Shown here piece after piece: positions 2,364 to 61,086 of a stretch of 64,000 nucleotides of DNA. The position numbers and the translations under genes are program-made. This DNA comes from an uncultured Pseudomonadota bacterium. GTDB taxonomy: Bacteria > UBA10199 > JADFYH01. Location: contig CAYLKF010000007.1 of the NCBI GenBank assembly GCA_964384365.1, forward strand, positions 10,732 through 74,731. The letters run 5' to 3'. Position 1 is the stretch's first letter, and every line of letters starts with the position of its first letter. A model generated the notes under the pieces. That model searched no databases. It had not been told where the DNA came from and saw only the letters and a program-made list of their open reading frames with translations.

Positions 2364-2494
2364 AAATGGGTCAGCATTTTCTCCGTTCGCGAAAAACGTG
2401 CCGTAAGGAAAGTTTTAAAATTTTTCAAAGAGTCTATTTTTTTAAAATCGATGGTTCGGCACTTTTCCCTCACTTCAAAAACGCCGACCCATTT
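2364..2494 (-). repeat. Family-1 structured repeat, copy A (131 bp)
   Basis: 17-bp arms 2364-2380 and 2478-2494 (2 G.U on minus strand). Inner stem GTGCCG/CGGCAC; conserved CCGAA and CCTTACGG. Confidence 0.85.
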
Positions 2495-3425
2495 ACGATT
2501 TTTTCCAGATCCATTTCTCTACTCCACTCATCCCCACATAGATCAACGCAATCGAGATGAGGCTTGCGCCCGTAGGAAACGAAAAGAGAAAAGAAAAGAA
2601 ATAGCCAAAGGCAGGCAGTAAAGTGCCAATCAGTGCGGAAACTAAAAAAGCATCTCGAAAAGATTGGGTTTGTTTGAGCGCGATGAAGGGGGGAATTACC
2701 ATTAAAGCAAAAACAGGCAGACTTCCTAAAATTTTGAGAGAAACCGTAATGGCTACCGTGAGGGTGAAGTAGAGAAAAATCATCCAGCTCTTTGCCGATA
2801 AACCGCGAATTTTCATGAAATCAGAATCGGCGGAAACAAAGATAAATTCACGCCGAAAGAAAAAATGAATCAAGAGAAGCGGAACGCAAAATGCCAAAAT
2901 TAAATGGGCGTCTTGAGGAGTTACTGCAACGGCATCGCCGAAGAGTAGAGTATCGATATTATGGCGCCCTTCAGAAATTCGATCTCCTATCATAATAATC
3001 AAGCCCGAAGCGGCGATATAAATGAGTCCCATCAAACTTTCGTCGGGGTATTCACTCCGTTTTCTGAATTTTGCAAAGAGCAGTGCTGTGAGGGCGGCAA
3101 GTAAAAAACCTGCAAGCAAAGGAATTGAAGATTCATTCGAGTGGAGCCCTAAGAGATCAAAGGCTAAAAAACAGAGAAAAATCCCCAGAGAAGCGCCTTG
3201 TGAAAGCGAAAGCGTTACAAACACAATTCGATTCAGAAGAATATAAACTCCCAAAATCGAAAGCGTGAGTCCGCAAAGAGCCCCCCCGAGGATGGGGTCT
3301 TTCCAAAGCGAGTAAGCCTCTAGAAAACGAGAAGACTCCTCGGGTTTTAAAGCAATCATTCCCCCAAAGAGCAGAAGGCTTACGAAACTATAAAAAATGA
3401 ATCTCGAAACGGTGGTTTTTTTCAT
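2493..3425 (-). CDS. znuB: Metal (Zn/Mn) ABC transporter permease, ZnuB-like
   Basis: ABC-3 family motifs (LLNRIVFV..SLSQGASLG, LLFGD); multiple TM helices; operon context. Confidence 0.85.
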   Translation of the reverse strand: MKKTTVSRFIFYSFVSLLLFGGMIALKPEESSRFLEAYSLWKDPILGGALCGLTLSILGVYILLNRIVFVTLSLSQGASLGIFLCFLAFDLLGLHSNESSIPLLAGFLLAALTALLFAKFRKRSEYPDESLMGLIYIAASGLIIMIGDRISEGRHNIDTLLFGDAVAVTPQDAHLILAFCVPLLLIHFFFRREFIFVSADSDFMKIRGLSAKSWMIFLYFTLTVAITVSLKILGSLPVFALMVIPPFIALKQTQSFRDAFLVSALIGTLLPAFGYFFSFLFSFPTGASLISIALIYVGMSGVEKWIWKKS

Positions 3426-4128
3426 GCACGTGTACGGTTTCGCCGTATGCCTCCGATAAGGTTTTTTCGTTTAAGATTTCTTCGACAGGCCCGCAAAAAA
3501 AATTATTTTCGCCCAGTAAGCAAAGCCAGTTCACTTGATTGATGATTCGATTCAAATCGTGATCGATCACCATCCACGAGAAGTGCTCGTTTTGATAAGT
3601 TTGAAGAATTTCCCAAATTTTTTCACGAAATTGATGATCGAGAGAATTGTGAGGTTCATCCATAATTAAAACGTTGGGCTGATCGATTAAGGCTCGCGCA
3701 ATGAGTGTGCGTTGACGTTGGCCCCCAGAGAGTTCTCGCAAGAGTTTTTTGCGCAAGGGCAGAAGATCGAGATTTTTTAAAACTTTTTCAGCCTTGCTTT
3801 CAAAATCAGAACTTGAAAATTTCCAGCGCGAACGCAAAGGCATGAGGCCCATTGTTAAAACATCGTCGACGGTGAGAGGAAATAAGCGATCGATGTGTTG
3901 CTCTTGAGGCACATAGCCAAAGCGGGTTTGCGCAGCCCAGGTGTAAGAACCCGAAAGGGTGGGGATGAGCCCCAAGATGGTTTTCACAAAGGTTGATTTT
4001 CCCGAACCGTTTCCACCAATGATTCCAACACGGGCGCCCTGTGGAATGGCAAAGGAGAGGGGTTTGAAGAGATTAACACCCAGATACCCCATCTTTAGGT
4101 TTTTGGCTTCGAGCAACACTTGTTTCAT
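3388..4128 (-). CDS. znuC: Metal ABC transporter ATP-binding protein, ZnuC-like
   Basis: Walker [31 protein letters not shown]-loop. ATG at 4128 preferred because the longer ORF runs into repeat copy E. Confidence 0.88.
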   Translation of the reverse strand: MKQVLLEAKNLKMGYLGVNLFKPLSFAIPQGARVGIIGGNGSGKSTFVKTILGLIPTLSGSYTWAAQTRFGYVPQEQHIDRLFPLTVDDVLTMGLMPLRSRWKFSSSDFESKAEKVLKNLDLLPLRKKLLRELSGGQRQRTLIARALIDQPNVLIMDEPHNSLDHQFREKIWEILQTYQNEHFSWMVIDHDLNRIINQVNWLCLLGENNFFCGPVEEILNEKTLSEAYGETVHVHEKNHRFEIHFL

Positions 4129-4139
4129 AAAATCTTCTG

Positions 4140-4287
4140 TAGCGGGCCAGTGAGTTCTTACAGTCGCAAAAAAACTCGCCGTAAGGAACAAAAACTAGCA
4201 ATCGATTTTGGAAATTGCCTTATTTCAATTGAAATAGCCCTCGCGGCTCGGCAGTTTTCACTCATTCCAGAACTCGCTAGCTCGCTA
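4140..4287 (-). repeat. Family-1 structured repeat, copy E (148 bp)
   Basis: 19-bp arms 4140-4158 and 4269-4287. Inner stem AAAACT-GCCG/CGGC-G-AGTTTT; CCTTACGG conserved. Overlaps the last codons of znuA. Confidence 0.75.
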
Positions 4288-5194
4288 CAACTTTCTTTAT
4301 CTCATCGATTAAATGATCGATCAAATCAAAATAGGTTTTAATTCCGCTCTCTCCTGTGTCGGTTGGAAGATCGAGCATAGGAATTCCACTTTTTTCCGAA
4401 AGATATTGAGGAATTTTTTTAGGGTAAAAATTTTCAACGAGAATGGCTTTTACTTTATAGTTGGGAAGCATTTTTAAGATTTCATCAACCCGTCCGGAGC
4501 TGGGCGGAATTCCTGGTTTTGCTTCGATGGCCGCCACGATGTTTAGCCCAGTCCAATTCGTGAAATAACTGAGTGAGCGGTGATAGGTAACCACGTCTTT
4601 GCCTTTGAAGGCAGCAATTTCTTTTTCCCAGGTTTTCATTTTTTCGTTGATGCGGTTCAAGAAATTTTGGAACCGAGCCTCATAGTAGGATTTTCCTTCA
4701 GGGTCAACCTGGGCCAAGTGTTGATAAATATTCGCAACCATCAACTTTGCATTCCGAGGGTCGAGCCAAATATGGGGGTTTCCCAAAGGGTGCACGTCGC
4801 CCATCGAGCGGTCGACTAAAGTCTTGGGAACTTCTAAGACTTGAATTCCTTGAGAAAGGTTCACGTTGCCCGGAGCGCCTACCATGATTTTTCCATTTCC
4901 GGATTGATTCACAACGGGTGGCAGCCAGCCCGTTTCTAACTGTAATCCGCCGTGTAAAAGCAGATCGGCTTTATTGAGTGCGACCGCAAACATCGGTTTG
5001 GCATCTAGAAAATGAGGATCTTGATTGCCTCGGGCGAGCGAAGTAACGCTAACGCGTTCTCCTCCAATTTCTTCTGCCAAGCTTCCGAACACTGGCAAGG
5101 TGGCGACGATATTCACCTTAGCTTGAAGGGTAGAAACAGGAAACACGCCGCAAGAGGCAAGAAGGGAAAATAAAAAGAATAAAGTTTTTTTCAT
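4277..5194 (-). CDS. znuA: Metal ABC transporter substrate-binding protein (ZnuA/TroA family)
   Basis: Signal peptide; metal ligands in DPHF, DVHPLGNPHIWLDP, VTYH, IEAKPGIPP. Confidence 0.9.
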   Translation of the reverse strand: MKKTLFFLFSLLASCGVFPVSTLQAKVNIVATLPVFGSLAEEIGGERVSVTSLARGNQDPHFLDAKPMFAVALNKADLLLHGGLQLETGWLPPVVNQSGNGKIMVGAPGNVNLSQGIQVLEVPKTLVDRSMGDVHPLGNPHIWLDPRNAKLMVANIYQHLAQVDPEGKSYYEARFQNFLNRINEKMKTWEKEIAAFKGKDVVTYHRSLSYFTNWTGLNIVAAIEAKPGIPPSSGRVDEILKMLPNYKVKAILVENFYPKKIPQYLSEKSGIPMLDLPTDTGESGIKTYFDLIDHLIDEIKKVVAS

Positions 5195-5211
5195 AAAGTC
5201 TCCGATTATTC

Positions 5212-5295
5212 CCCCCTCTTAAGACTAAGAGGGGGTTAGGGGGCGTTATGATTTTTTCATAACTCCTCCCGTCCTCCTCTTATCTTAAGAGGAGG
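5212..5295. repeat. REP-like palindrome doublet (family 2)
   Basis: CCCCCTCTT-aagact-AAGAGGGGG (5212-5235), then TTATGA/TCATAA, then CCTCCTCTT-atctt-AAGAGGAGG (5273-5295). Confidence 0.8.
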
Positions 5296-5313
5296 AGGTG
5301 TTAGGGAAAAAGA

Positions 5314-6693: not shown

Positions 6694-6741
6694 AAATTCC
6701 CCCCTTAATGACTTAAATGATTAAAAACGAGAAAAGCTCAT

Positions 6742-7029: not shown

Positions 7030-7142
7030 GCGTGCTGATTACCTAAAATTAAGATTTTTTGTCAATCGTCTTAAAGGCCAGCGTTTCTTCTAATCGTGTC
7101 CTCCAGAGGCAGATAGGAAAAAACTCGCCTTTACAGAATTTT

Positions 7143-7619: not shown

Positions 7620-7738
7620 AAGATTATATTTCGTTGACTAGAATTTGAATTTTCTTTCTAATACACCTCTTTTATTGCAAGAGATAGCAGATCTTCGTTT
7701 ATGTAAAAGATTTCTTATTCTTTATCAAAGGAGTTTTT

Positions 7739-8743
7739 ATGCAGAAAAGCCTTCGCTTTAGTTTTTTCTTGGTTCTTTTAGGAATGACAGCCTGCTTTGG
7801 ATCATCGCGAGTCGATCAGGCCATGAAAGAAGGAAAGCCGCTGGTGCGGGTTGGAGATGAGAAAATCCACGAAGGTTATGTTGATTTAATTGAGCGCGTG
7901 AACCCTGCGATTAAGGCTCAAATGGATAATCCGATGGGGAAAAAACGCTTGCTCGATAATTTGATTGAGCAGGAGATGCTCTACCAAGAAAGTATGAGCC
8001 GCGGGATTGAAAAACTTCCTTTGGTGAAAGACAAGATCGATCTTTACCGCCGTGTTGTGGTGGCTCAATCTTTAATTGATGATGAAGTGAATAAAAAAGC
8101 AAAAGCTTACTACGATGCCAACAAAGAGAAAGAATTTGATCGCGTTAAAGTTTCTCAGATTTTCTTTTCAAACATGCCAAAGCCTACTCCACCTCAGCCT
8201 GGAAAACCCATGACTCCACCCTCTGAGGCAGAAAAGAATCGTGCTGCTCAAGAAGCAGAAGTTCAAGTGAAGGCTGCTTATGAGAAGCTAAAGGGGGGAG
8301 AAGCTTGGGAGAAGGTGGTTGAAAGTTATTCAGCCGATAAAAATACAGCCGCTCGCGTAGGCGATTTAGGTTATTTGAGCCGGGGTGATAAAAGAATTGA
8401 GCGCCTTGATTATCAAAAATTGGTGGATGCTGCTTTTAGTCTTCCGAAAGATGGTTTCTCAGAGCCTATTCAAGCCAAAGATGGTTGGCATATTATTCGG
8501 GTTACCGAAGAGAGAAAAATTCAACCTTATGCAGATGTAGAAAACGCCATTCGAATGAAGTTGCGCGGTGAAGTGAAGAATCAATTAATGGCCGACTTGA
8601 AAAATAAAATGAAAGTTCAATATTTGGATGTTTCATTGGCCGAGTCTCAGCCCGCTAATCCGCCCATTAACATTCAACCTCCTGAAAATAAACCGGTGAT
8701 TGTGCCCGAATCGAAGCCCGCGGAGAGTCAGCCGGGGAAGTAG
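7739..8743 (+). CDS. PpiC-type peptidyl-prolyl isomerase lipoprotein (PrsA/SurA-like)
   Basis: Lipobox-like GMTAC; SADKNTAARVGDLG, FSL..DGFSEPIQ..GWHII rotamase motifs; SD AAAGGAG. Confidence 0.85.
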   Translation: MQKSLRFSFFLVLLGMTACFGSSRVDQAMKEGKPLVRVGDEKIHEGYVDLIERVNPAIKAQMDNPMGKKRLLDNLIEQEMLYQESMSRGIEKLPLVKDKIDLYRRVVVAQSLIDDEVNKKAKAYYDANKEKEFDRVKVSQIFFSNMPKPTPPQPGKPMTPPSEAEKNRAAQEAEVQVKAAYEKLKGGEAWEKVVESYSADKNTAARVGDLGYLSRGDKRIERLDYQKLVDAAFSLPKDGFSEPIQAKDGWHIIRVTEERKIQPYADVENAIRMKLRGEVKNQLMADLKNKMKVQYLDVSLAESQPANPPINIQPPENKPVIVPESKPAESQPGK

Positions 8744-8758
8744 GATTTCCCCCCTCTT

Positions 8759-9313: not shown

Positions 9314-9379
9314 AGCCTCGTTTTCTTTTTAAAAGGAAAAAAAATTGAAAAAGAGAAGTGAGCGTTCGAAAATCGAACT

Positions 9380-13301: not shown

Positions 13302-13365
13302 TCCCCCTAACCCCAGTGGGGTAGAAAAAACTCCTCCTCTTAAGATTGAGAGGAGGCAGGGAGGT
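13302..13365. repeat. REP-like palindrome (family 2)
   Basis: CCTCCTCT-taagattg-AGAGGAGG at 13333-13356, preceded by a degenerate CCCCCTAACCCC..GGGG. Confidence 0.7.
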
Positions 13366-15838: not shown

Positions 15839-16690
15839 TTAAAAAGCGTAAGTGGTGTTAAATAAAAACCCCGCTTTTACATCGGTGAGTAAAAGAGGAG
15901 AGAGCGGCGATAAAATAACTCCGGATTTTAGTTGCAGCGTATCGATCACCGAAACGCGTGCACCCAAGCTCGTGGAGAGCTTGGGGCTTAGTTGCCAGAA
16001 AAGTGCTGGATTCAAAAAAGCCTTGGTCGAACCTGTGTTGAGGTTTTCGCTCGAGAGAGCGGTAGAGCCTTGAAGAGCCAGCAAAAGCTTGAGAGGAGCC
16101 TTTCCCCCAACAATTGGAACAGTAATTCCTGTTGAAAAATCGAGGCTCGGAGCGGGTTGATCGGAGGCCAAAACCGAAGTTCCGAGCGTGATGAAACTAT
16201 CGAGCTGATGAAACCACTGCGCAGAATAGGTGAGATAGGGCGAAAAAATTACATTACCTGCCCCATAACCTTCGTCTTTTTTTCCGCTTGGAAAAGAAAC
16301 GACTTGTCCAAAAGTAAGGCCCATGCGGTTTGGCTCTTGCTGACTCCACAATAAAGATTTTAGGGTAAAAGCCACGTCGCCCAAGCCAGAACCCTGCGGA
16401 AGAAAATCTTGGCGAAGCGTTGCAAAGGGTAGGCGTGCCCCCACGCTTACACGCGGATGCACGACGTATTCCCCTGAAAGTTGATATTTCGCAACACTGC
16501 CTAGGTGATCATCGAGTTCATCAATACTGATATCGAGAGCAATATAAGTTTTGGGAGGCCGCGATTCAGTGGAGAAAGGATTAAAAAGCGCGAATCCTCC
16601 GCCGCCATGAGCGTTCGTGTGATGGGCAAAGGTCGAGTTTGATAATAGAAAAACCCAAATAAAGCCGATGCCGATTAAAAAATATTTCAT
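15839..16690 (-). CDS. Putative outer-membrane beta-barrel transporter with N-terminal His motif
   Basis: Signal peptide then AHHTNAHGGG; GSGLGDVAF; amphipathic strands; terminal Phe. ATG 16690 preferred over TTG 16708. Confidence 0.65.
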   Translation of the reverse strand: MKYFLIGIGFIWVFLLSNSTFAHHTNAHGGGGFALFNPFSTESRPPKTYIALDISIDELDDHLGSVAKYQLSGEYVVHPRVSVGARLPFATLRQDFLPQGSGLGDVAFTLKSLLWSQQEPNRMGLTFGQVVSFPSGKKDEGYGAGNVIFSPYLTYSAQWFHQLDSFITLGTSVLASDQPAPSLDFSTGITVPIVGGKAPLKLLLALQGSTALSSENLNTGSTKAFLNPALFWQLSPKLSTSLGARVSVIDTLQLKSGVILSPLSPLLLTDVKAGFLFNTTYAF

Positions 16691-16715
16691 AAGTAGCCTT
16701 TCTTGCAAAGTGTTT

Positions 16716-16851
16716 GCAATGAGGCAGCATCCTTTCGTTCAGACAAAACGCGCCGCAAGGTATGCGCGGGGTGGCGGCATAGAAGGCTGTGCGATTCTAC
16801 AATGGATAGGTTCGGCGCTTTGTCTTCACTGCAGGATACTTCCTTGATTGC
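16716..16851 (-). repeat. Family-1 structured repeat, copy D (136 bp)
   Basis: Arms AGTATCCT/AGGATGCT plus GCAAT/ATTGC. Inner stem AGACAAA-GCGCCG/CGGCGC-GT-TTTGTCT; CCTTGCGG. Confidence 0.8.
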
Positions 16852-16866
16852 GCTAAGGTGAAAAAA

Positions 16867-17220
16867 TTAAGAAAGGCGAGGCGGCTTTTCAGGAGGGCTG
16901 GAATAGTAAGAAGAAATGAAAAAAGAATCGGTTTTGAGAGAAGTGAGTTCGGCTTGAAAAATCGGAAAACTGAAAAAGCTGGGTAAAAAAGAATCGGTTT
17001 TTAAACTTAAAATCTCTTCGTGTGATTTTTGATGGGGCTTTGGATTTTCTTTTAAGCTTTCTTGGAGGGCATGGCCGCAAATTAAAATGGAGCTTTTTGG
17101 ATTTGAGGAGATGTCGGGATTTTTAGAAAAATTTAAGACAGCACTTAAGCTAAAACCCTGGCCTAAGCTGATCAGCGCAAAGAAGAAAACTACCCAAAAT
17201 TTTTGCCGGAAAAATTTCAC
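16867..17220 (-). CDS. Small upstream ORF, candidate arrest peptide ending SPPEKPPRLS
   Basis: N-terminal TM helix, internal SLKTDSF repeat, C-terminal PP motif; GTG 17220 (or TTG 17232). Confidence 0.6.
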   Translation of the reverse strand: MKFFRQKFWVVFFFALISLGQGFSLSAVLNFSKNPDISSNPKSSILICGHALQESLKENPKPHQKSHEEILSLKTDSFLPSFFSFPIFQAELTSLKTDSFFISSYYSSPPEKPPRLS

Positions 17221-17259
17221 GACGCTTTTCAATAATAAAATGGAGATCTTGTCAATCGA

Positions 17260-17772: not shown

Positions 17773-17880
17773 AGTCTCCTCACTCCTATTATCGGCAAAC
17801 CCTTGATTTTGTTGCGTGCGTGCCGTTGTAAGAAATGTAGCAGATTGTGAAAACTTGTTAAAGAATTTGTATGCTTTGAA

Positions 17881-22553: not shown

Positions 22554-22593
22554 GCTCGAAGGGATAAGAGAAAGTCTTTTTTTGAAAAGTGGG

Positions 22594-22621
22594 TTGACAA
22601 GCAAATGAAACACGATAAGTT
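22594..22621 (+). promoter_or_regulatory. Putative recA promoter
   Basis: TTGACA-16 nt-TAAGTT; SD GAGGAGG before ATG 22663. Confidence 0.45.
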
Positions 22622-22662
22622 TCAAGGCTAACCTTCCACCGAAAATAATCCGAGGAGGAATT

Positions 22663-27550: not shown

Positions 27551-27619
27551 AACTTGTTCCTTTCTTTTTAAGGAGAAGCTAAAGGAGTTTTGTGAAGAAT
27601 GAGTGACGGAGGAGTGAAA

Positions 27620-28057
27620 TTAAGAAAGTTTTCTTAAAGGATTTTCCCATTGAAGACTAGGAAAACGAGAAAAATCAGCATCGGTTGAATAGAGAGCGCA
27701 GCCATTTTCAATTGCTAAGGCTGCCAGATGGGCATCGGAACTTAAGTTAGCGGTTGCTTGTCCCTCTTTTAGTAACAATTGCAGGATTTCCCAATGCTTT
27801 GAGCTGGGATGGATTACCTTGACGCAAGGCTGTTCAAACCAACTTTGCACCCTTTTAATGGCTTGCGGAATTGAAAGGGGTTTTTCAAAAACACGCGAGT
27901 GCGTACTAATACGAATGAAAGCCATCACCACAGGCCAACATAAACAGACGGGATCTTCTTGAGAAAGTTGTTTGTCCCACCATTGTCGAGCTTTTTTATT
28001 AAGAGCGCTATTGGAATCTTCTGCATACAGGAGAATATTAGCATCGACCAAAATCAT
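27620..28057 (-). CDS. vapC: VapC PIN-domain toxin
   Basis: MILVDANILLYA, DAHLAALAIENG..LYSTDADFSRFP. Confidence 0.92.
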   Translation of the reverse strand: MILVDANILLYAEDSNSALNKKARQWWDKQLSQEDPVCLCWPVVMAFIRISTHSRVFEKPLSIPQAIKRVQSWFEQPCVKVIHPSSKHWEILQLLLKEGQATANLSSDAHLAALAIENGCALYSTDADFSRFPSLQWENPLRKLS

Positions 28058-28299
28058 CGAGAATCTTCCCCTTCCAATTGGCTGAGTAGATCTTGGATGC
28101 GGTCCAAATCATAACCCTTCTTCAATTTTAGGCGGTGGGGAGTTGTTTTGTAGGGGCGTTTTTTACTGCCTTTTTCGATTTCACTTAAGCCTAAGCGCAA
28201 CGCTTGATTGACGATCTTTTTAAGAGAGCTTTTCGATTTTTGAGCCACTGCTTTGGCTTTATCGAGCACATCGTGGTCAAAATTTAAAGTGGTACGCAT
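28054..28299 (-). CDS. vapB: VapB-type antitoxin
   Basis: MRTTLNFDHDVL RHH-like N-terminus; overlaps the vapC start. Confidence 0.85.
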   Translation of the reverse strand: MRTTLNFDHDVLDKAKAVAQKSKSSLKKIVNQALRLGLSEIEKGSKKRPYKTTPHRLKLKKGYDLDRIQDLLSQLEGEDSR

Positions 28300-28304
28300 A
28301 TAGC

Positions 28305-28335
28305 GACATCTTAGCATCACCAGAAGTGATGTCAA
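28305..28335 (-). promoter_or_regulatory. vapBC promoter with overlapping inverted-repeat operator
   Basis: Minus strand TTGACA (28335-28330)-16 nt-TAAGAT (28313-28308); GACATC-N17-GATGTC palindrome at 28305-28333. Confidence 0.65.
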
Positions 28336-28343
28336 GGCATCAC

Positions 28344-28703
28344 TTACAAAGCCTGAATGACGATCCGGGCCGAGGCGAGGTTGGTGGCGAGTGGGATGTT
28401 ATGCACATCGGCCAGCCTTAAAAGCATGAAGATATCGGGCTCGTGGGGGTGAATGCCTAGAGGGTCGCGCAAGAAAATCACTCCATCGACTTTTCCATTC
28501 ACGATTTCAGCGGCAATTTGCGCATCGCCACCCTTCGGGCCACTTTCCATTTTTTGAACTTTTAAACCGGCTTCTTCAATATATTTTCCGGTGGTGCCCG
28601 TCGCAATGAGCTTAAATTTTTTGATGAGCTTTAAGTTATCTTTTACAAAAGCCACCATTTCGGCTTTTTTGCCGTCGTGGGCAATGAGGGCAAGGGTTTT
28701 CAT
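28344..28703 (-). CDS. mgsA: Methylglyoxal synthase
   Basis: ALIAHDGKK, ATGTTG, SGPKGGDAQI, HPHEPDI..LLRLADVHNIPLATN. Confidence 0.95.
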   Translation of the reverse strand: MKTLALIAHDGKKAEMVAFVKDNLKLIKKFKLIATGTTGKYIEEAGLKVQKMESGPKGGDAQIAAEIVNGKVDGVIFLRDPLGIHPHEPDIFMLLRLADVHNIPLATNLASARIVIQAL

Positions 28704-32468: not shown

Positions 32469-32533
32469 GAAGAAAACAGATACAGTGATTTCAAAAAAAG
32501 TCCAGCATCGAGTACAAAAATTTATTTTTTTAT

Positions 32534-32673
32534 GAGTATCCGGTCTGCATTTCCTCAGTTCAGACAAAACTGCACCGCAAGGAAAAAATGCTCTGGATTC
32601 GAAAGTCTAATATTTTTAAGAGTCGATAAGTTCGGTGCTTTGTCTTCACTTCAAAAATACAGACCGGATACTC
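32534..32673 (-). repeat. Family-1 structured repeat, copy C (140 bp)
   Basis: 19-bp arms GAGTATCCGGTCTG(C/T)ATTT (1 G.U on minus strand). Inner stem AGACAAA-GCACCG/CGGTGC-AGT-TTTGTCT. Confidence 0.85.
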
Positions 32674-32689
32674 CATCGAGGTAAAATAA

Positions 32690-33397
32690 TTATTTCTTAC
32701 CGTTTGAAACGAGTCGCAAATACATTTTGGCAGATTCTTGGTGGGGGTTTGCTTTCAGTGCAGCTTCCCAGGTTTTGACGGCTTGCGCGTGCTGGCCTTT
32801 GCCGTAGTAGGTGACGCCGAGTTGCACACGGGCATCATGATAGTGAGAGTTTTGTTTGACAACTTGATTTAAGATTTTGATCGCTTCGTTGTGTTTGCCC
32901 GCTTCACGGGTAGAGATGGCGAGCTTTGTATGGATATCTAAAAATTTAGGGCCGAGTTCGAGAGCTCTTTTATACTGGCCAATCGCTTCTTGGTGAAGCC
33001 CGATTCCTTCGTAAATGTCACCCAGCTCAGCGTGTTTGTTGGCGAGCTTGTTTTTTAAAAACGGGTCAATTTTCTCTTTTTTCTTTTTTGCTGTTTTGGG
33101 GTGAACCCGTGAGTAAAGGGCGGCTGCTTTTTTGTATTGGCCTAAGTCATTATACAAAACGGCCAAGTTTAAAAGAGCTTCGGTATAATTCGGGTTAATC
33201 TTGATTGCTTTTTCGAGGCATTCGATCGATCGGCTAAATTCACCGGTGGAGTGATAAATCACGCCCAGCATATTATAAACATCTGCAAAATGTTTTTTTG
33301 ATTTGAGCAAGGCCAAAAAACACTTCTCGGCTTTTTCATAATCTTTACTTTTAAAATATTTTCGGCCTTCTAAAAAATAATTCAGTGTGTTTTCCAT
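32690..33397 (-). CDS. TPR-repeat protein
   Basis: Repeated TPR units (ADVYNMLGVIY, INPNYTEALLNLAV, DARVQLGVTY). Confidence 0.85.
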   Translation of the reverse strand: MENTLNYFLEGRKYFKSKDYEKAEKCFLALLKSKKHFADVYNMLGVIYHSTGEFSRSIECLEKAIKINPNYTEALLNLAVLYNDLGQYKKAAALYSRVHPKTAKKKKEKIDPFLKNKLANKHAELGDIYEGIGLHQEAIGQYKRALELGPKFLDIHTKLAISTREAGKHNEAIKILNQVVKQNSHYHDARVQLGVTYYGKGQHAQAVKTWEAALKANPHQESAKMYLRLVSNGKK

Positions 33398-34175: not shown

Positions 34176-34298
34176 CCTATAAAAAATGTTTAAGGAAGTT
34201 CAAGTTTATTAAAAATGAAAGTTTTTTTTCTAGCCCTACATTGACAGCTGATTTGAAGAAGCATATTTTTTAGCCAAATTATTGAGGAGGAGAACCTT

Positions 34299-36464: not shown

Positions 36465-36716
36465 ACTCTCTCCCTCCGTTTGTTTGAATGATCTAAAAAT
36501 TATAAGGGAGAGCCCGCTAATTAGCTACTTCACTTGTTTAGACAGATTTAAACAATCTTTAGCAAAATGCGTGATTTTTGTGTGAATCCACATGATTTCA
36601 AACAGAAGTGATCGGTGTTTGCGATGTTTATGCAAAGCAGAGAGGATGTTTTCTTTTGAATCGAACATAGATCTTGACACCCCCCCTTTTTCTAGAATAA
36701 CCGAATAAATAATTGT

Positions 36717-36803
36717 ATGACTTCTTTTTTCGCACAAATTTGTTGTTACGCTTTAGGCCGCATGGACTGTTGTCTGTCCATGTGTATGCAGCCGATTGCG
36801 TAG
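36717..36803 (+). CDS. Cys-rich leader peptide MTSFFAQICCYALGRMDCCLSMCMQPIA (not in ORF track)
   Basis: Hand translation: 28 aa, 5 Cys (all TGT), 4 Met; 146 nt upstream of the porin-sbp-cysTWA operon. Confidence 0.75.
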   Translation: MTSFFAQICCYALGRMDCCLSMCMQPIA

Positions 36804-36912
36804 CGCGTGCGATTTCTCTTTTTAAATTTCATTAAAAATTTAAATCTCTCCGCGACGATGAATCGGCTTATCCAAATGATTTGCTTTGCCCGTAGTGGGC
36901 CGGTTTTTCGTT
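36745..36912 (+). promoter_or_regulatory. Putative attenuator (alternative 1:2, 2:3, 3:4 pairings)
   Basis: GTTACGC 36745-51/GCGTAGC 36798-804; GCCGATT 36791-97/AATCGGC 36861-67; AATCGGC/GCCGGTT 36899-905 followed by a T tract. Confidence 0.65.
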
Positions 36913-36949
36913 TATTATTTCTGAATAGTGATTAAAGGAGAAAGTTTTC

Positions 36950-45597: not shown

Positions 45598-47271
45598 TCA
45601 TCTCATACAATTCGAATAACCGGTTTTCTCTAAAAAACGGTGAAGGAGTTTTTTGAAAAAAGAATCGGATTCTTTTTTGGGCTCTTCATTCACACTCCGG
45701 CATACTTTTTCGCGGAGCGGCTCTGGCAGTGATTTGAAGAATGGAGTCGAGAATTGTAGATTTTCTTTTCTTGCATCCAGGAAAAATCCATAGGCCATTA
45801 AATCTTTGCTGTTTTTTACTTCTTTCGCTTCAGTGATAAGAGGTGGATTGCTAGAAAAGGTTTGAAGAAATTCAGAGAGATTTTTTTGATCGCCCAGTGC
45901 CATTTGTAAGGCGAGAAGACGTTCGCGTTCGAGTTTTGGCATTTTTTGCACTAGGGTGTTTGTGAAGAGCGGGTAGAAAACTTTATAATCGACGTTTTCA
46001 GGAATCTGCAAAAGCTTAAGAATTTGGGCAAGCGCCTCGTCGTTAATTGCAGTTTGCTGAGCGAGAGAAATATAAATGGGTAAAAAATCTTCTGCATCTT
46101 GAATCGAAAAGGGCCATTGTTTGGTTTTATTTTGATAAGCGCGGGTGAAACAATCGAGCAATGAAGAAGATTCAGAAGGGTTTGAAAGTAAATAATCCCA
46201 ATAAGCTTTTTGAGTAGTGCTGCATAAGACGAGTCGATTTAAATTTTCTTTTGTATTTGGATTTAAAATTATTCCTACTTCTTCTTGAGCGAGCGGCCCA
46301 TTTAAATAGGCTTTTAAGAAGGGGTAGAGGGGAGCGTTAGAACAATTAGACAGAACGAGACCCTGGATCTTATCTTCGTATTCCTTTCGATCTTTCGGGT
46401 AATAACGATCTACTTTAATATTTTTGAGCAGACCGTCTATTTGAGAAGGATTCTGGCAAGCAGCTTGAATAACTTTGGGCATTAACATGGCTGATCGAGG
46501 ATCGGTGATATTGCTTCCAAATTCTTCTGAGAGACGCGAAGCTTCTTGAGGGCTTAAAAAGTCGACGAGCCCATAAATAATCGATTTCTGTTGGCCCGTA
46601 TGGTAGCTTTCTAGAATTGCTTTCACTCGAATTTCGGGATTTGTTTCTTTTTTCAACTCTTCAATCACAAAATCACGACCGGCAACTTCATAATAATAGA
46701 GAGGTTCGGTTAAGAGTTCGACTTTTCGTTTGGGTTTAGTTTCTTGAGCGTAGGCTTTGGAATATTCAGGGAGTAAATTAATTTGGCTGGCAAGTGAGAT
46801 GCTTTTCCAATCTTGGGCTTCTGATGAGTGGGGTTTTAGATTTATTTCTTGATCGAGGGCAATCACCGTACGTCTTAAGGCAGAAAGGTAATAGGCCCGA
46901 ATGGGGTATTTTTTGTTGTTCTTCCAAAAAGTTCCCCGATTAAAATCTCCTTCTTCTGTAAAATACGCTTCGTAGACTAATTGATTATTTTCAAAAACTT
47001 TAACTTCATATTCTTTATCGGGGAAAACGGCCTTATATAAAAGGTAGGGCAGGGCAATGGCTTCGAGTGCGCTTGCATGGCCTCCTGCATAATGATCACC
47101 CGCTTTTTTAAGTGTTTCTTCTACGCGAATATTGGGAGAATCTTTTAATTTTTTTATGCCTTCTCGAGTGATGGGGTAAGGAATCAACGATTGGGTTGTC
47201 CAAGAAGCAAAGAGCGAAGAAGAGAAAAGAAAAAAGATAAGAAACAAGATGGTTTGTTGAATTTTAAGCAA
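45598..47271 (-). CDS. Secreted hypothetical protein
   Basis: 557-aa ORF with signal peptide (SSSLFA); no family recognised. Confidence 0.65.
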   Translation of the reverse strand: MLKIQQTILFLIFFLFSSSLFASWTTQSLIPYPITREGIKKLKDSPNIRVEETLKKAGDHYAGGHASALEAIALPYLLYKAVFPDKEYEVKVFENNQLVYEAYFTEEGDFNRGTFWKNNKKYPIRAYYLSALRRTVIALDQEINLKPHSSEAQDWKSISLASQINLLPEYSKAYAQETKPKRKVELLTEPLYYYEVAGRDFVIEELKKETNPEIRVKAILESYHTGQQKSIIYGLVDFLSPQEASRLSEEFGSNITDPRSAMLMPKVIQAACQNPSQIDGLLKNIKVDRYYPKDRKEYEDKIQGLVLSNCSNAPLYPFLKAYLNGPLAQEEVGIILNPNTKENLNRLVLCSTTQKAYWDYLLSNPSESSSLLDCFTRAYQNKTKQWPFSIQDAEDFLPIYISLAQQTAINDEALAQILKLLQIPENVDYKVFYPLFTNTLVQKMPKLERERLLALQMALGDQKNLSEFLQTFSSNPPLITEAKEVKNSKDLMAYGFFLDARKENLQFSTPFFKSLPEPLREKVCRSVNEEPKKESDSFFKKLLHRFLEKTGYSNCMR

Positions 47272-48226: not shown

Positions 48227-48241
48227 ATAAAACTATGAAGG

Positions 48242-48372
48242 TAAAGGTCAACATTTTCTCAGTTCGCAAAAAACGCGCCGCAAGGAATAGTTTAACGTAC
48301 TTTTGAAAAAAATATGATTTTTAAAATCGATAATTCGGCACTTTTCGCCTACTTCAAAAATGCCGACCTTTA
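48242..48372 (-). repeat. Family-1 structured repeat, copy B (131 bp)
   Basis: 16-bp arms TAAAGGTC(GG/AA)CATTTT (2 G.U on minus strand). Inner stem GCGAAAA-GTGCCG/CGGCGC-G-TTTTTTGC. Confidence 0.85.
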
Positions 48373-48395
48373 GCTCTAAGTTAGGATTGTACTGT

Positions 48396-50736: not shown

Positions 50737-50808
50737 TGGGGCGTCGACAAGCGGTAAGTCACTGGATTTTGATTCCAGCATTCCCAGGTTCGAATCCTGG
50801 CGCCCCAA
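50737..50808 (+). tRNA. tRNA-Gln (TTG)
   Basis: Acceptor TGGGGCG/CGCCCCA, anticodon arm CTGGA-TTTTGAT-TCCAG, T-arm GGTTCGAATCC; CCA not encoded. Confidence 0.97.
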
Positions 50809-55046: not shown

Positions 55047-55060
55047 AGTTTGGAGGCAAT

Positions 55061-55504: not shown

Positions 55505-55524
55505 TTAAATTTAGGGGAATATTT

Positions 55525-56898: not shown

Positions 56899-56899
56899 T

Positions 56900-57493: not shown

Positions 57494-57562
57494 TCAAATA
57501 AAATCATATTGTTATATGTTTGTGTCATTTTTGTAAAAAAATAAATATTTTCAGATTCAATA

Positions 57563-57591
57563 TTGACACAACGCGTTATGGGTTGTACTTT
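57563..57591 (+). promoter_or_regulatory. Sigma70-type promoter for the small basic protein
   Basis: TTGACA-17 nt-TACTTT; ACAAC/GTTGT inverted repeat overlapping the spacer. Confidence 0.55.
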
Positions 57592-57630
57592 CGGCCCTAA
57601 CAAAGTCGAAGAAAAAGAAAGGAGTTCTCT

Positions 57631-57840
57631 ATGTGGACTCAAAATTTAGAAAAAGATGTAAAAAAGAAAGTTAAAACTCAAGGCAGAAAAGGTAATTTTT
57701 TTAGTCAATTGAGTAAAAGCTTTCGGAATGTGGCCCCCCTCGAATGGGTACCTTCTTATTACCAAGATCAAATTCGGGCGGCGAAACCCGTAAAACTCTC
57801 TAAACCTCGAACTAAAAAATTAGCCCAAGCCCTCCATTAA
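57631..57840 (+). CDS. Small basic hypothetical protein (69 aa)
   Basis: SD AAAGGAG, own promoter and terminator, Lys-rich. Confidence 0.7.
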   Translation: MWTQNLEKDVKKKVKTQGRKGNFFSQLSKSFRNVAPLEWVPSYYQDQIRAAKPVKLSKPRTKKLAQALH

Positions 57841-57866
57841 AATCCCCCCTTCGGGGGATTTTTTTT
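57841..57866 (+). terminator. Intrinsic terminator
   Basis: ATCCCCC-cttc-GGGGGAT followed by a T tract. Confidence 0.88.
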
Positions 57867-57958
57867 GCCTTTTTCACCTCACTTTATTTTTTCATTGAAG
57901 CTTATCCCAGTATCCAGTTAATGTGTTCATTCTGTAGTTTTATTGAAATATTGAAATT

Positions 57959-58032
57959 CGGGGAGTAACTCAGCCCGGTAGAGTGCCAGCTTTGGGAGCT
58001 GGAGGTCGCAGGTTCAACTCCTGTCTCCCCGA
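57959..58032 (+). tRNA. tRNA-Pro (TGG)
   Basis: Acceptor CGGGGAG/CTCCCCG, anticodon arm CCAGC-TTTGGGA-GCTGG, T-arm GGTTCAACTCC. Confidence 0.96.
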
Positions 58033-58036
58033 TTTT

Positions 58037-58124
58037 ATTTAAATTAGCGAACAAAGTGAGCGAGAGGGGGAGGCTCCTTCAGCTTGACTGAAGGAGGGGG
58101 CGACGTGAGCCCCCTGTGATTGCC
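58037..58124. repeat. Palindromic insert (family 4) between tRNA-Pro and its duplicated 3' part
   Basis: CTCCTTCAG-cttga-CTGAAGGAG flanked by AGGGGG..GGCTC / GAGC.CCCCT. Confidence 0.65.
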
Positions 58125-58177
58125 TGCCAGCTTTGGGAGCTGGAGGTCGCAGGTTCAACTCCTGTCTCCCCGATTTT
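58125..58177 (+). repeat. 53-bp exact direct repeat of the tRNA-Pro 3' portion
   Basis: Identical to 57984-58036 (TGCCAGCTTTGGGAGC...CCCCGATTTT). Confidence 0.92.
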
Positions 58178-58185
58178 TTTAATAA

Positions 58186-59994
58186 TCAGTTTTTGTTTAA
58201 TGAGAGAGTCGGCGAATAGGTTTGATCGACTTCTTTCCACCACCAATTTCCTGTCTGTTTCTTCTGATCTAAATTTGTAAAATGGTAATCGGCAATCACG
58301 GCTCGAATAAATTGAGGTGGGTGGTCGGGGAAAGGGTTATTTTTTAACAGAGCCAACACATCGGGTGAGCCTTCTAATAATTTAGTTAAGAAAATTCCGA
58401 ACCAAGAGCGTGACTGGTAAGGCCTTAAGGCTTGAAACCACATCTGCCAATCGAGGCGGGGTTGGAAGGGTTCTACAAAACCCGGACGTTGGTTTAGATT
58501 GCCGGGTTTCCATTTAAACTCGTAAGCAAGCCATTGATTCCCATCGTTACTTCCTTCAATTATAATTTCCGAACGTTTGGTCGTCATAACCGCAAATAAG
58601 CCGTAACCATTCACCAAATTAAAAGGGTGGAAAAATTCATAAGTTTTTTGAAGGGGCCAAAATACTTGAGGGTCTTTTCCTATGCGGGTTAGAAAAGGAA
58701 TCCAAGAAATAGAGAAAATAAAAATAGAGAAGGGGATCATTAACTTTTTAGGCCACTTTTTCTGAGCAGAGGGGAGAGATAGCTTTTTGAGAAAACGAAA
58801 CTTTCGAAAAAAAGAATCATCCAACAGAATCACGCAAAGAGTAATCGTAAGTAGATTAAAGAAATTATAATTTCCGGTTAAGAAAATCAGGGTTTGAAAT
58901 CCAATAAGTGTGAAAGCTCCAATTTGGCGAAGTTTACGAGGTGCGAAGATTAAAAAAGGAATTGCGAGTTCGATCACAAACATCAAGGTGCAAGAAAGTT
59001 TTTGAAATGCTGTGGGAAGAAGATTTGCATAGTAACTGATCCAATGCGGAAGAGGCTGGGTTTCATAGTGGTAGGTTAAAGCGCTTAAATTTCTCCAATT
59101 TGGATCTCCGCTTGTAAGTTTTACTAAACCCGAAGAGAGCATTAGGCGAAACAGCAGCCAACGAAGCAAAAAAAGAATATAAGGAGAAGGCGCTAGATTT
59201 TTTCGAAGGAGGATGTCTCGAGAAGCAAAAAAAATCGCTAAGAATCCGGTTTCAAGAAGTAGAGTATCCCACTGATAACCCAAAAAAGTTTGCCCAACAT
59301 AAAAAAGAGAAAGATAAAACAACCAAAGTACAAACAAAATCACCGAAGAGTTGATTCCTAATATTAGAAGTAGGGAGAAGCTTACCCCCAGCCAAGAAAC
59401 CAGTTGAAGGCTTAGATCGCTATTCTCTAACCAAAATAAAGTGGGTACAAACCAATAACGTTCGAGCCCTGTATGTTGAGAGATGATTTTCAGAAAATCT
59501 TGTGCGGGAAGAATCCCTCCGCTCCCAATCAAGCCTTTGATTTGAAGAGCGAGAGAGAGAAACGCAAAGAAGTAAACCAGCCCTAACATTTTAAGAAAAA
59601 TATTTTGAGCGATTTGATAAGTGGAAATTTCTGGAGTTCCCCATAAAGTTTGAGTGACATGAGAAAAAAAAGAGCGATTTTCAGCCACCTTTCGGTAACA
59701 AAGTTCACTCAAAAATCGGAATCCCGGTATTTTTCGGTAAAACCAGAGTGGCCACTTTTTTTCACTGATGTGAAGTGCTTCAAAAAAAGCTTCGGCGCCT
59801 TTTGTATAAGTTCCGTCTGTGCGAATAAGATAAATAGATTGGGTGAAGTTTGGTTCGGGAATTTGAGGGTAAAGATTTGTAACTTCTTGATAGGGTTTAT
59901 AAGCAATGTGATCTTGGGTTAAGTTTATTAAACGAAGAATCCAGTATTTGCAAAAAGAGCAGTTGCCATCATAAACAAGCAGGGGTTTTTCCAT
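58186..59994 (-). CDS. DCC1-like thioredoxin domain fused to lipase maturation factor (LMF1) family protein
   Basis: N-term LVYDGNCSFC; YQWDTLLLETGFL, LLFRLMLSSGLVK, YETQPLP, HPFNLVNGYGLF, PRLDWQMWF. Confidence 0.88.
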   Translation of the reverse strand: MEKPLLVYDGNCSFCKYWILRLINLTQDHIAYKPYQEVTNLYPQIPEPNFTQSIYLIRTDGTYTKGAEAFFEALHISEKKWPLWFYRKIPGFRFLSELCYRKVAENRSFFSHVTQTLWGTPEISTYQIAQNIFLKMLGLVYFFAFLSLALQIKGLIGSGGILPAQDFLKIISQHTGLERYWFVPTLFWLENSDLSLQLVSWLGVSFSLLLILGINSSVILFVLWLFYLSLFYVGQTFLGYQWDTLLLETGFLAIFFASRDILLRKNLAPSPYILFLLRWLLFRLMLSSGLVKLTSGDPNWRNLSALTYHYETQPLPHWISYYANLLPTAFQKLSCTLMFVIELAIPFLIFAPRKLRQIGAFTLIGFQTLIFLTGNYNFFNLLTITLCVILLDDSFFRKFRFLKKLSLPSAQKKWPKKLMIPFSIFIFSISWIPFLTRIGKDPQVFWPLQKTYEFFHPFNLVNGYGLFAVMTTKRSEIIIEGSNDGNQWLAYEFKWKPGNLNQRPGFVEPFQPRLDWQMWFQALRPYQSRSWFGIFLTKLLEGSPDVLALLKNNPFPDHPPQFIRAVIADYHFTNLDQKKQTGNWWWKEVDQTYSPTLSLNKN

Positions 59995-60059
59995 GATTTC
60001 CCTTTAGGAAAGTTTGATTTGTTATAGTATAATCCTACGTGAAAAAGGAGGGAGGGCCT

Positions 60060-60320
60060 ATGAAAAAAATGAGTTTATTTTTTTGGGTTCTTTTTTTAAT
60101 TGGAATTTCGCCTGCGAGAGCCGATTATATTTGGGATGATAAAGCCGCTATTCAGAATGATCAAAAAAATATTCAGCAAGACTCTCAGAAATTAGAAGCA
60201 GATCAGAAAAATAATGCAGGGTCTGCCACGATTCAACAAGATCAAAAACAGTTAGAACAAGATCAGAAACAATTAAAGCAAGATCAGAGGATTTTAAGGG
60301 AAGATAAGCCTCCCATGTGA
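60060..60320 (+). CDS. Small secreted Q/D/K-rich repeat protein
   Basis: SD GGAGG, signal peptide, repeated QQD/xQDQK heptads; GTG 60039 is an alternative start. Confidence 0.7.
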   Translation: MKKMSLFFWVLFLIGISPARADYIWDDKAAIQNDQKNIQQDSQKLEADQKNNAGSATIQQDQKQLEQDQKQLKQDQRILREDKPPM

Positions 60321-60328
60321 GAACTCTC

Positions 60329-60946
60329 ATGAAAATAAAAATCCTTTTTCTTTTATTGCTTTTGAATTTTGTATTGAACTCAGGAGCGTTTGCTATGGGA
60401 GAACAGACACAAGCTGTTCATACTGCCTCAGCCACCTTTGCGGGGGGCTGTTTTTGGTGCATGGAACCCCCTTTTGAAAAATTAAAAGGGGTGATTAAAG
60501 TTATTTCGGGCTATACCGGAGGAAGTAAAGAGAATCCAAGTTATGAAGAAGTGTCTTCCGGCAAAACAGGGCATATCGAGGCCATTCAGATTATTTATGA
60601 TCCAAGCCAATTAAACTACTCTCAGCTTTTAGAAGTTTTTTGGCAAAATGTTGATCCGACCGATGATGGTGGGCAGTTTGTAGATCGGGGTTCTCAATAT
60701 AAAACCGCCATTTTTTATCATAACGAAGAGCAAAAAAATTTAGCAGAAGAATCTAAAAAACAATTAGAAGCTTCGGGCCGCTTTAAAAAGCCTATTGTTA
60801 CCGAGATTCGTGCATTTCAAAAGTTTTATCCGGCCGAAGATTATCACCAGGATTATTACAAAAAGAATACTTTGCATTATAAAATGTATCGCTATGGTTC
60901 TGGGCGCGATCAGTTTTTAGAGAAGAATTGGAAAGGTAATAAGTAA
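60329..60946 (+). CDS. msrA: Exported peptide methionine sulfoxide reductase A
   Basis: Signal peptide; FAGGCFWCME, GHIEA, FYPAEDYHQDYY. Confidence 0.96.
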   Translation: MKIKILFLLLLLNFVLNSGAFAMGEQTQAVHTASATFAGGCFWCMEPPFEKLKGVIKVISGYTGGSKENPSYEEVSSGKTGHIEAIQIIYDPSQLNYSQLLEVFWQNVDPTDDGGQFVDRGSQYKTAIFYHNEEQKNLAEESKKQLEASGRFKKPIVTEIRAFQKFYPAEDYHQDYYKKNTLHYKMYRYGSGRDQFLEKNWKGNK

Positions 60947-60950
60947 CAGA

Positions 60951-61086
60951 GTGACTGGGGAGTGTTTCTGAATGAGAGAAAAAGCACCGAATTTATCGAT
61001 AATTTAATTTAACGAACTTTCTATTTTTCTAAAAGCGCTCCCTTACGGTGCGTTTTTTCGCGAAAGAAGAAATGCTCATCAGTCAC
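60951..61086 (+). repeat. Family-1 structured repeat, copy F (136 bp, opposite orientation to the other five)
   Basis: 19-bp arms GTGACTGGGGAGTGTTTCT/AGAAATGCTCATCAGTCAC (3 G.U on + strand). Inner stem AAAAA-GCACCG/CGGTGC-G-TTTTT. Confidence 0.85.

Follow-up and report, generated by a model that had tools for sequence, protein, structure and literature searches.

A covarying intergenic hairpin repeat with a patchy distribution among close relatives in an uncultured Deltaproteobacteria-like lineage

The window analysed here, a stretch of 64,000 nucleotides from contig CAYLKF010000007.1 of an uncultured bacterium, contains six copies (c1 to c6) of a non-coding element of 135–155 nt that folds as a single long hairpin. 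These copies form one family with a common fold, covarying arms, an intrinsic polarity with an excess of wobble pairs on one strand, and turnover between sister species. At a probability of roughly one half, the element is best read as a lineage-restricted, non-autonomous mobile hairpin repeat that would be recognised in its folded, single-stranded form and transcribed along with its operon, giving a stem-loop between cistrons. It would then be a new family of a known type of repeat; a new kind of RNA is not yet established, and an RNA-level role of the element is plausible.

The window genome was compared with two sister genomes, A (L012, L020 and L023) and B (L013, L021 and L024), both from one Joint Genome Institute (JGI) metagenome. 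The syntenic loci of relatives were reached through homologues of ZnuA, a DUF2232 protein and the alanyl-tRNA synthetase (AlaRS). The AlaRS of genome A was 97% identical to that of the window genome, with a mean DNA identity of 87.5%, and genome B gave 91% for AlaRS and about 77–78% for DNA. Two more distant relatives, L016 and L017, had AlaRS identities of 75–77%. The lineage is uncultured; in the AlaRS comparison the nearest named entries were metagenome-assembled genomes labelled 'Deltaproteobacteria bacterium', and the best cultured match was Geotalea at 54%. A covariance model (CM), R1, was built from the six window copies and a second, R2, from 14 copies, comprising six in the window genome, seven in genome A and one in genome B.

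Fold, covariation and polarity of the element

The first-pass annotation of the window, made from its letters alone, had described six copies of a structured element, and R1 recovered all of them with refined coordinates and scores of 81–137 bits. No seventh copy was found in the window by R1 or R2, the other R1 hits being the reverse strands of the same copies at 27–35 bits, and R2 gave no extra or diverged copies, L016 and L017 included. The motif CCGA-N30-60-CCTTRCGG had five matches in the window against 0.45 expected, the apex of c2 being longer, and exact matches to CCTTRCGGYR in the window were confined to the six copies.

All 14 copies folded as one long hairpin, and the six window copies folded far below their shuffled counterparts (z −3.9 to −8.1). 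An outer helix of 17–21 bp is followed by purine-rich internal loops that enclose a helix of 2–3 bp; in c4 and c5 these are two 2×2 GA/GA loops around a 3-bp AGU/ACU helix. Inside the loops are a 7-bp A/U-rich helix, a 2–3-nt bulge and a 6-bp GYRCCG/CGGYRC clamp, which closes a poorly conserved apex of 47–63 nt bordered by CCGAA(Y)YATCGAT on the 5′ side and UUCCUURCGG on the 3′ side. The apex flank includes a conserved ATCGAT palindrome. The best conserved columns were the 3′ flank of the apex, the clamp and the A/U helix, where the commonest base had a frequency of 0.8–0.93, and the lowest conservation was at the termini of the element (0.4–0.6). The architecture described in the first-pass annotation, with an outer stem, internal loops, an inner stem, a variable apex and CCTT(A/G)CGG, is therefore that of the sequences themselves.

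Covariation between the arms was measured in two alignments. When the 14 copies were fitted to the CM, 89.9% of pair cells held standard pairs, compared with 41.9–52.2% when the 3′ partners were slid by 1–3 columns, and 25 of 34 pairs were altered on both sides (6–12 in the slid controls). The covariation score was 0.527 against at most 0.129 in the controls, and 0 of 500 shuffles reached the observed values. A MAFFT alignment that was blind to the structure gave 89.0% paired cells against 38.7–50.4%, two-sided changes at 19 of 27 pairs against 4–12, and a score of 0.488 against at most 0.114. Some 89–90% of cells were thus paired by either alignment, against 39–52% in slid controls, and the inner-stem covariations quoted from the window copies are real. 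The identity of the arms among non-orthologous copies was only 45–75%; because pairing is kept at this level of divergence, the earlier claim of outer arms that vary from copy to copy and still pair with each other is solid, and it was borne out by the alignments and the slid controls alike. Between the orthologous c1 copies of the window genome and genome A, substitutions in the main helices kept pairs or made new ones: a U-A pair was exchanged for C-G by changes on both strands, G.U for A-U and G.G for U.G. Two further changes broke terminal pairs. Two strains of B (99.5% identical; L013 12555 versus L014) differ at four positions in their copy at the c1 site. These differences were uninformative, one turning A.C into G-C in the A/U helix, one breaking a G-C pair of the clamp and two being unpaired.

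The element is asymmetric, with GAAGUGA-type strings in the 5′ side of the internal loops and GAAC-type strings (GAACUGA) in the 3′ side that are not complements of one another. Model scores were 77–138 bits in the sense direction versus 21–39 bits in antisense, sense being higher by 40–100 bits. Thirteen of the 14 copies folded better in the element's own sense, the exception being the c6 copy of genome A with its 15-nt insert, and for the six window copies the advantage was 1.4 to 16.6 kcal/mol. Wobble pairs over the 14 copies numbered 44 G.U versus 14 A.C, some of the A.C cells being misregistered arms of c2 and c3; counting by columns gave 18 versus 11, and the six window copies in the CM alignment gave 19 versus 7. 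These are counts of non-independent events, many wobble cells being common by descent. The bias of G.U pairs towards one strand that had been proposed from a hand count is real and weaker than was stated. For minus-strand copies a replication bias would favour A.C, which makes replication-linked mutation an unlikely cause of the G.U excess; a transcription-linked bias may be its source. A fold that is better on one strand suits RNA and single-stranded DNA equally well.

Places of the copies and turnover between relatives

Searches with the covariance models over approximately 63 kb of each genome gave six copies in the window genome, seven in genome A, one in genome B and none in L016 or L017. 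All 14 copies were located in intergenic spacers, and the distance from the upstream stop codon to the start of the hairpin was 0–23 nt for the window copies and at most 29 nt over the full set.

Copy c1 (2359..2499, minus strand; R1 132.5 bits, fold −44.3 kcal/mol, z −5.85) occupies the convergent gap between an ECH gene at 1546–2358 (+) and znuB at 2493–3425 (−), at the end of a znuA-znuC-znuB operon whose genes were identified by the Pfam families ZnuA, ABC_tran and ABC-3. Its orthologue in genome A (L012 12535–12674) had 93% arm identity. The c1 site of genome B holds a copy of another subfamily (AGACAAA type), 62% identical to c1 of the window and 73% to c4.

Copy c2 (4136..4291, minus strand; R1 81 bits) lies inside the same operon, between znuA and znuC. 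In A, B, L016 and L017 these two genes are joined by a 4-nt ATGA-type overlap with no element, and because the outgroups are empty at this site c2 is an insertion. Its 5′ arm provides the final codons and the stop of znuA (4277–4288), the ZnuA C-terminus being KKVVAS* in the window versus KKTL* in genome A, and the znuC ATG is at 4128. The element can therefore alter the ends of genes, here by supplying the znuA stop codon and uncoupling znuA from znuC.

Copy c3 (16712..16855, minus strand; R1 105 bits) is placed between an open reading frame (ORF) of 121 aa at 16867–17232 and a Phenol_MetA_deg-like outer-membrane channel-like gene at 15839–16708. The spacer of 33–69 nt is empty in B, L016 and L017 and filled in the window genome and in A. 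The arms of the two copies were only 57% identical, and the flanking genes 83–93%. Copy c4 (32532..32675, minus strand; R1 137 bits, fold −57.9 kcal/mol, z −8.1) has a TPR gene (32690–33397) on one side and a gene for an ABC ATPase on the other. It forms the most perfect of the hairpins, with 31 Watson-Crick and three G.U among 34 pairs; genome A has an orthologue of 99% identity, and B lacks the copy. Copy c5 (48236..48378, minus strand; R1 133.8 bits), between carbonic anhydrase and alpha/beta-hydrolase genes, is absent from both A, with a 33-nt spacer, and B, with a 44-nt spacer, and a T-rich stretch 3′ of its hairpin is common to the spacer of B.

The sole plus-strand copy in the window, c6 (60947..61090, plus strand; R1 129 bits), is found between msrA (60317–60946) and a 120-aa ORF (61098–61460) that precedes msrB and has no Pfam match on record to back the name cupin given to it in the first-pass annotation. 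The window copy is in sense orientation, genome A has at this site an inverted copy with different flanks that is antisense to msrA and the downstream ORF, and genome B has a spacer of 9 nt.

Intact copies were present in genome A at two sites where the window genome has a remnant or an unrelated spacer. The remnant (7076..7129, minus strand), probably decayed and consisting of the 3′ half only, was located by alignment to L012, where the intact counterpart is at 8002–8143; it includes GGCGAGTTTTTTCC and AGAAGAAACGCTGGCC and was detected by neither covariance model. A 10-mer, GCCTCTGGAG, occurred only twice in approximately 450 kb, at window 7101–7110 and at L020 17054–17063, both times inside copies and at mirror-image positions: in the 3′-half remnant of the window and in the 15-nt insert in the 5′ half of the c6 copy of A. 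The pair could be a trace of the element flipping or of template switching between its arms. Upstream of a gyrA-like gene the window has, at 13325–13356 on the minus strand, a terminator-like hairpin, CCTCCTCT..AGAGGAGG, followed by T6, and the corresponding spacer of genome A holds a full copy of the element instead (L012 1685–1833). About 400–570 nt past the right end of the window, at L006 3399–3572, only the outer arms of a copy are left in the window genome. The interior is deleted, and the junction of the arms falls between the two T runs that the full copy in A has (L020 20669–20811).

Gain, loss, replacement, truncation and internal deletion between such close relatives are how a mobile and mostly dispensable element behaves, and not how a fixed functional non-coding RNA does. 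The initial proposal of an RNA-level element stands in part, as far as a single structured, covarying family with intrinsic polarity is concerned. It was also considered whether the high conservation of c4 (99%) and c1 (92–93%) between the window genome and A reflected purifying selection, and this was rejected because the identity of the two genomes is a mosaic. Around the mean of 87.5%, some 50 stretches of 150 nt or longer reach 97% identity or more, and element-free spacers at 7620–7738, 17773–17880, 22554–22662 and 34176–34298 were 95–100% identical. The mosaic suggests that the two lineages recombine often or that the constraint on them is very uneven. A further idea, that a core had been inserted into pre-existing hairpins, would account for the variability of the outer arms and was rejected because the outer arms are homologous between copies; it is also countered by the empty c2 sites, which have no palindrome, and by the arms-only form in L006, which is a deletion between T runs.

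The window genome was on record only as short Logan contigs, and three of these (L027, L026 and L006) have one of their ends at the conserved core of c1, c2 and c6, respectively (window positions 2467, 4193 and 61046). The repeat is thus a cause of breaks in short-read assemblies of this organism.

Readings of the element

Under the preferred reading, a mobile hairpin of REPIN or MITE (miniature inverted-repeat transposable element) kind, the mobile unit would be the single long hairpin, a non-coding interspersed repeat whose fold would be kept since the folded single strand is recognised by a factor encoded elsewhere. A precedent for such a factor is the Y1/HUH transposase of RAYT or IS200/IS605 type, which acts on single-stranded DNA. 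Insertions would survive only in short spacers just past stop codons, mostly in sense, so that copies would be co-transcribed with operons and would form very stable intercistronic or 3′-terminal RNA stem-loops. These may affect the decay or processing of mRNA as a by-product or secondary use, like REP/BIME, ERIC and Correia repeats. Termini that are the least conserved part, with the core the most conserved, and the lack of a flanking duplication are more in keeping with a factor that recognises a structure than with one that recognises terminal inverted repeats (TIRs).

REPINs are doublets of REP sequences that form hairpins and are mobilised in trans by a RAYT Y1 transposase encoded by a single-copy gene (Bertels and Rainey, 2011; PMC3116915). 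Compensatory changes are common in them, and they are predicted, as is the present element, to fold in single-stranded DNA or mRNA (PMC3116915). It had been argued from the window that covarying arms speak against a MITE or other mobile DNA, and this does not follow, since REPINs already show such changes. The element resembles REPINs in being a short extragenic repeat in which two inverted halves and a variable spacer form one long hairpin, in the compensatory changes across that hairpin (25 of 34 and 19 of 27 pairs), in a density of approximately one per 10 kb, in its restriction to a lineage and in its decay remnants ('singlets'). In contrast, REPINs have near-invariant REP 16–25-mers (16-mers) at their ends and near-identical copies around a master sequence, whereas here the ends are least conserved, an asymmetric internal core is conserved and copies are 45–75% identical. 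There is also no GTAG/CTAC-type REP signature in the element, save by chance in c2, and no RAYT (Y1/HUH) Pfam hit among the called genes of approximately 190 kb of the clade. With variable ends and an asymmetric core, greater divergence and no known RAYT, the element appears to work like a REPIN without being a member of that group.

The called genes compared, from approximately 190 kb of this clade, gave no transposase, HUH enzyme, reverse transcriptase, group II intron or retron among their Pfam hits, and this sample is far too small to exclude a single-copy mobility gene elsewhere in the genome. The search for a co-occurring RAYT/HUH or reverse transcriptase gene that the first-pass annotation had proposed was therefore negative within that limit. 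Searches for known families were equally empty. No Rfam 15 family matched the copies at gathering thresholds, as had been anticipated, and none was credible at E up to 10 in three copy-bearing stretches; the best hit on a copy was a plant miRNA hairpin at 22 bits versus a gathering score of 90. A strict two-part pattern was searched for in viral, genome and metagenome collections, and all 20 matches failed the covariance models; the family is absent from these three public collections.

Several mobile or regulatory elements share parts of this description. Palindrome-associated elements derived from IS200/IS605 (PATEs) are similar in having no TIRs and no target duplication, in the proposed recognition of a folded single strand, and in strand-specific, replication-linked orientation. 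They have separate subterminal left and right hairpins and insert 3′ of a fixed tetra- or pentanucleotide, whereas here one hairpin spans the whole element and no shared 5′-flanking motif was apparent among ends that are diverged and clean empty sites that are few. The wobble-bearing strand of the element is also the leading-strand template, not the lagging-strand template. The attC sites of integrons likewise conserve structure over sequence, fold strand-specifically with conserved unpaired bases and lie just past an ORF in its orientation. An integron attC array was nevertheless rejected because the neighbourhood has neither a cassette array nor an integrase, the flanks are housekeeping genes in conserved synteny, and consistent R″/R′ core sites (RYYYAAC / GTTRRRY) are missing from the element ends, with a chance match in one copy.

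A canonical promoter or terminator was rejected because a promoter/terminator scan of the copies was empty, with no terminator-like site inside c1, c2 or c4. The GYRCCG of the clamp is followed by U4–7, yet the enclosed loop is 47–63 nt, and the short G+C-rich hairpin with a small loop and a direct U run of an intrinsic terminator is not seen. A single-ligand riboswitch had been argued against from the start, and it was rejected here for the same reason: the genes after the copies (znuC, the outer-membrane channel-like gene, the ABC ATPase, the hydrolase and the 120-aa ORF of unknown function, with c1 in a convergent gap) are unrelated and do not belong to one pathway.

A classical cut-and-paste MITE, that is a deletion derivative of an insertion sequence (IS) moved as double-stranded DNA by a DDE transposase acting at TIRs, with the RNA fold incidental, is quite unlikely. 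ERIC/IRU, Correia (NEMIS) and the pneumococcal BOX, RUP and SPRITE repeats are similar to the element as 100–200-nt, intergenic, co-transcribed sequences that form long RNA hairpins in post-gene spacers. These families have recognisable TIRs and TA target duplications, neither of which was found here. The element shares no sequence similarity with them and belongs to another host lineage, the uncultured Deltaproteobacteria-like clade. What such a MITE would account for is the size, the A+T-rich apex, the intergenic place, the inverted symmetry and the presence/absence polymorphism, as in ERIC, Correia, RUP and BOX (PMC3049150), as well as the ends of the form GGGTCAG...CTGACCC that many copies have. 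The polymorphism was seen at the orthologous c2, c3, c5 and c6 sites. It would not account for termini conserved at 0.4–0.6 versus 0.8–0.93 in the core, for conserved internal loops (GAAGTGA/GAACTGA) that are not inverted repeats of one another, or for wobble pairs on one strand, which are not a prediction of any double-stranded mechanism. The loci compared revealed no parent IS, with no half-element matches flanking any gene, and there were no TIRs matching an IS. No target-site duplication was apparent either, since none of the 14 copies has a direct repeat next to its hairpin and no duplication of fixed length was seen; comparisons of filled and empty sites were ambiguous on this point. Two candidates were considered and rejected as inconsistent across copies: CTCGATG beside c4, which is not perfectly kept in A and stands 21 nt away from the hairpin, and A(C/T)TTA at c5, which may mark a deletion in A. 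With the termini least conserved and no abutting direct repeat, the element is not a MITE of the usual kind defined by fixed TIRs and target-site duplications.

A repeat mobilised through RNA, by SINE-like retrotransposition, or one that bears a self-cleaving ribozyme is highly improbable, and nothing tested supported the ribozyme or RNA-mediated mobility that had been suggested from the window. The sense-orientation bias would agree with an RNA intermediate, as would the inserts of c5 and c4, which seem to have non-conserved T/A-rich 3′ tails of 21–35 nt with direct repeats of unequal length further out. The c5 'tail' is however probably ancestral spacer, because it is common to the empty spacer of B, the direct repeat at c4 is imperfect in A, and the approximately 190 kb gave no reverse transcriptase, group II intron or retron. 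The strings CUGAAGUGA and CGAAA loosely resemble a hammerhead core, but these hammerhead-like strings form no three-way junction, the element having two coaxial helices only, and no Rfam ribozyme matched at E up to 10.

The orientation of the copies bears on the remaining readings. It had been observed that all six window copies follow the upstream gene, which is literally true; c1 lies in a convergent gap where either orientation satisfies the rule, so that only five are informative. When all genomes were considered there were eight informative sites, with both neighbours on one strand, and seven of these held only sense copies. The c6 site was mixed, sense in the window genome and antisense in A, and the inverted copy in the spacer between msrA and the downstream ORF of that genome is the one exception to sense orientation. 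Among copies that are not simple orthologues, sense outnumbered antisense by about 9:1. However, 12 of 13 copies are on the same strand in window terms and the GC skew of the plus strand is positive throughout the window, and sense orientation is therefore inseparable from a bias towards one replication strand. A polarity set by transcription and one set by the replication strand each have exactly one exception. Seven of the eight informative sites lie between minus-strand genes, while the tandem junctions of the window number 27 +/+ versus 24 −/−; this 7:1 bias is explained by neither hypothesis (about p = 0.02, binomial estimate). The data hint, in numbers too small for a firm statement, that both transcription and the replication strand matter.

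The sense orientation, at seven of the eight informative sites or in nine of ten copies, is also what would be expected of a cis-acting RNA selected by the host, an intercistronic or 3′-untranslated hairpin module kept at each locus with spread being secondary. This alternative, the main rival and the leading idea of the first-pass annotation, is possible, at clearly less than even odds. Such a module could block 3′-exonucleases, be processed by RNase III or by RNase E, or recruit a lineage-specific RNA-binding protein, which would read the tandem G-A loops and the exposed UUCCUUA. ERIC, Correia and the pneumococcal repeats are precedents for co-transcribed hairpins that act on mRNA; orientation-dependent cleavage by RNase E (ERIC) or RNase III (Correia) and effects on mRNA stability are reported (PMC3049150). 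The G.U:A.C ratio of 3:1 is found on the element's sense strand, which in all informative copies but one is also the mRNA strand, opposite to the prediction from replication skew, and conserved non-Watson-Crick loops and unpaired motifs are embedded within covarying helices. The substitutions between orthologues that preserve the structure, and the retention of 90% of pairs at 45–75% arm identity, would also be natural for a selected RNA. Against it, occupancy is patchy despite shared gene order, copies have been truncated, internally deleted, replaced and once inverted, gene contexts are unrelated, and the family is missing from relatives at 75–84% protein identity. In addition, the wobbles of the antisense c6 copy of A stay on the element's own sense strand and not on the mRNA strand, and c4 does not stand out by being 99% identical in the window genome and A, as many element-free tracts are equally conserved.

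A stronger form of the same idea, taken as one joint claim, is unlikely. It holds that the hairpin is an RNA module of a new intercistronic class, selected by the host, whose G-A loops and UUCCUUA would be read by a lineage-specific protein or by the ribosome, and whose spread would require transcription, either to make an RNA intermediate or to let hairpins extrude from the non-template strand. UUCCUUA presumably matches the last six bases, UCCUUA, of the 16S rRNA 3′ end. If true, this would explain the sense orientation together with the concentration in genes of one replication strand.

The location of all but one copy on a single replication strand, and the conserved ATCGAT palindrome in the apex flank, could instead reflect a site acting at the level of DNA, such as a cruciform or a palindrome bound by a nucleoid, replication or recombination factor, with complementarity maintained by template-switch 'quasipalindrome correction'. 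Template switching can create changes that look compensatory without any selection. Such correction would however erase mismatches, while the G-A loops and bulges are conserved in all copies; a wobble excess on one strand is unexpected in duplex DNA, and the element is patchy in occupancy and dispensable. A site of this kind is very unlikely.

Several points weigh against the preferred reading of a mobile hairpin. With no transposase of any kind in the approximately 190 kb of this clade, the mobilising enzyme is purely inferred. The copies are far more diverged, at 45–75% arm identity, than a typical active REPIN or MITE population, and the 90% of pairs kept despite this divergence points to a long-lasting constraint that could equally be host selection on RNA. 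The c1 orthologues of the window genome and A have changed in place in ways that preserve the structure. Sites scored as empty may be deletions, and the c5 site in A is compatible with a loss between ACTTA and ATTTA. In 12 of 13 copies the wobbles are on the C-rich strand, the template of leading-strand synthesis, and under the IS608 paradigm it is not this strand that becomes exposed. The G.U excess also opposes a replication-linked mutation bias.

The family joins a short list of bacterial interspersed repeats in which the fold and not the sequence is conserved. It is unusual among them in its variable ends, in its conserved asymmetric core with G-A loops, and in highly diverged copies that are still 90% paired, and with these three features it could serve to separate selection for transposability as a folded single strand from host selection on a transcribed stem-loop, two explanations that are commonly confounded.

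Other features of the window

Window positions 27568–28345 could not be aligned to A or B and contain only small ORFs (27620–28057 and 28054–28335); in their place both sister genomes have an alpha/beta-hydrolase gene of approximately 530 aa. A PIN/RHH toxin-antitoxin-like pair is encoded in genome B at L021 2703–3352; the corresponding place in the window (45598–47271) and in A is taken by a 557-aa ORF without a Pfam match. A segment of 485 nt at 36465–36949 has no long ORF and is flanked by a 90-aa minus-strand ORF and a plus-strand gene. Two tRNA genes, at 50737–50808 and 57959–58032 on the plus strand, were the sole Rfam matches at gathering threshold in the window.

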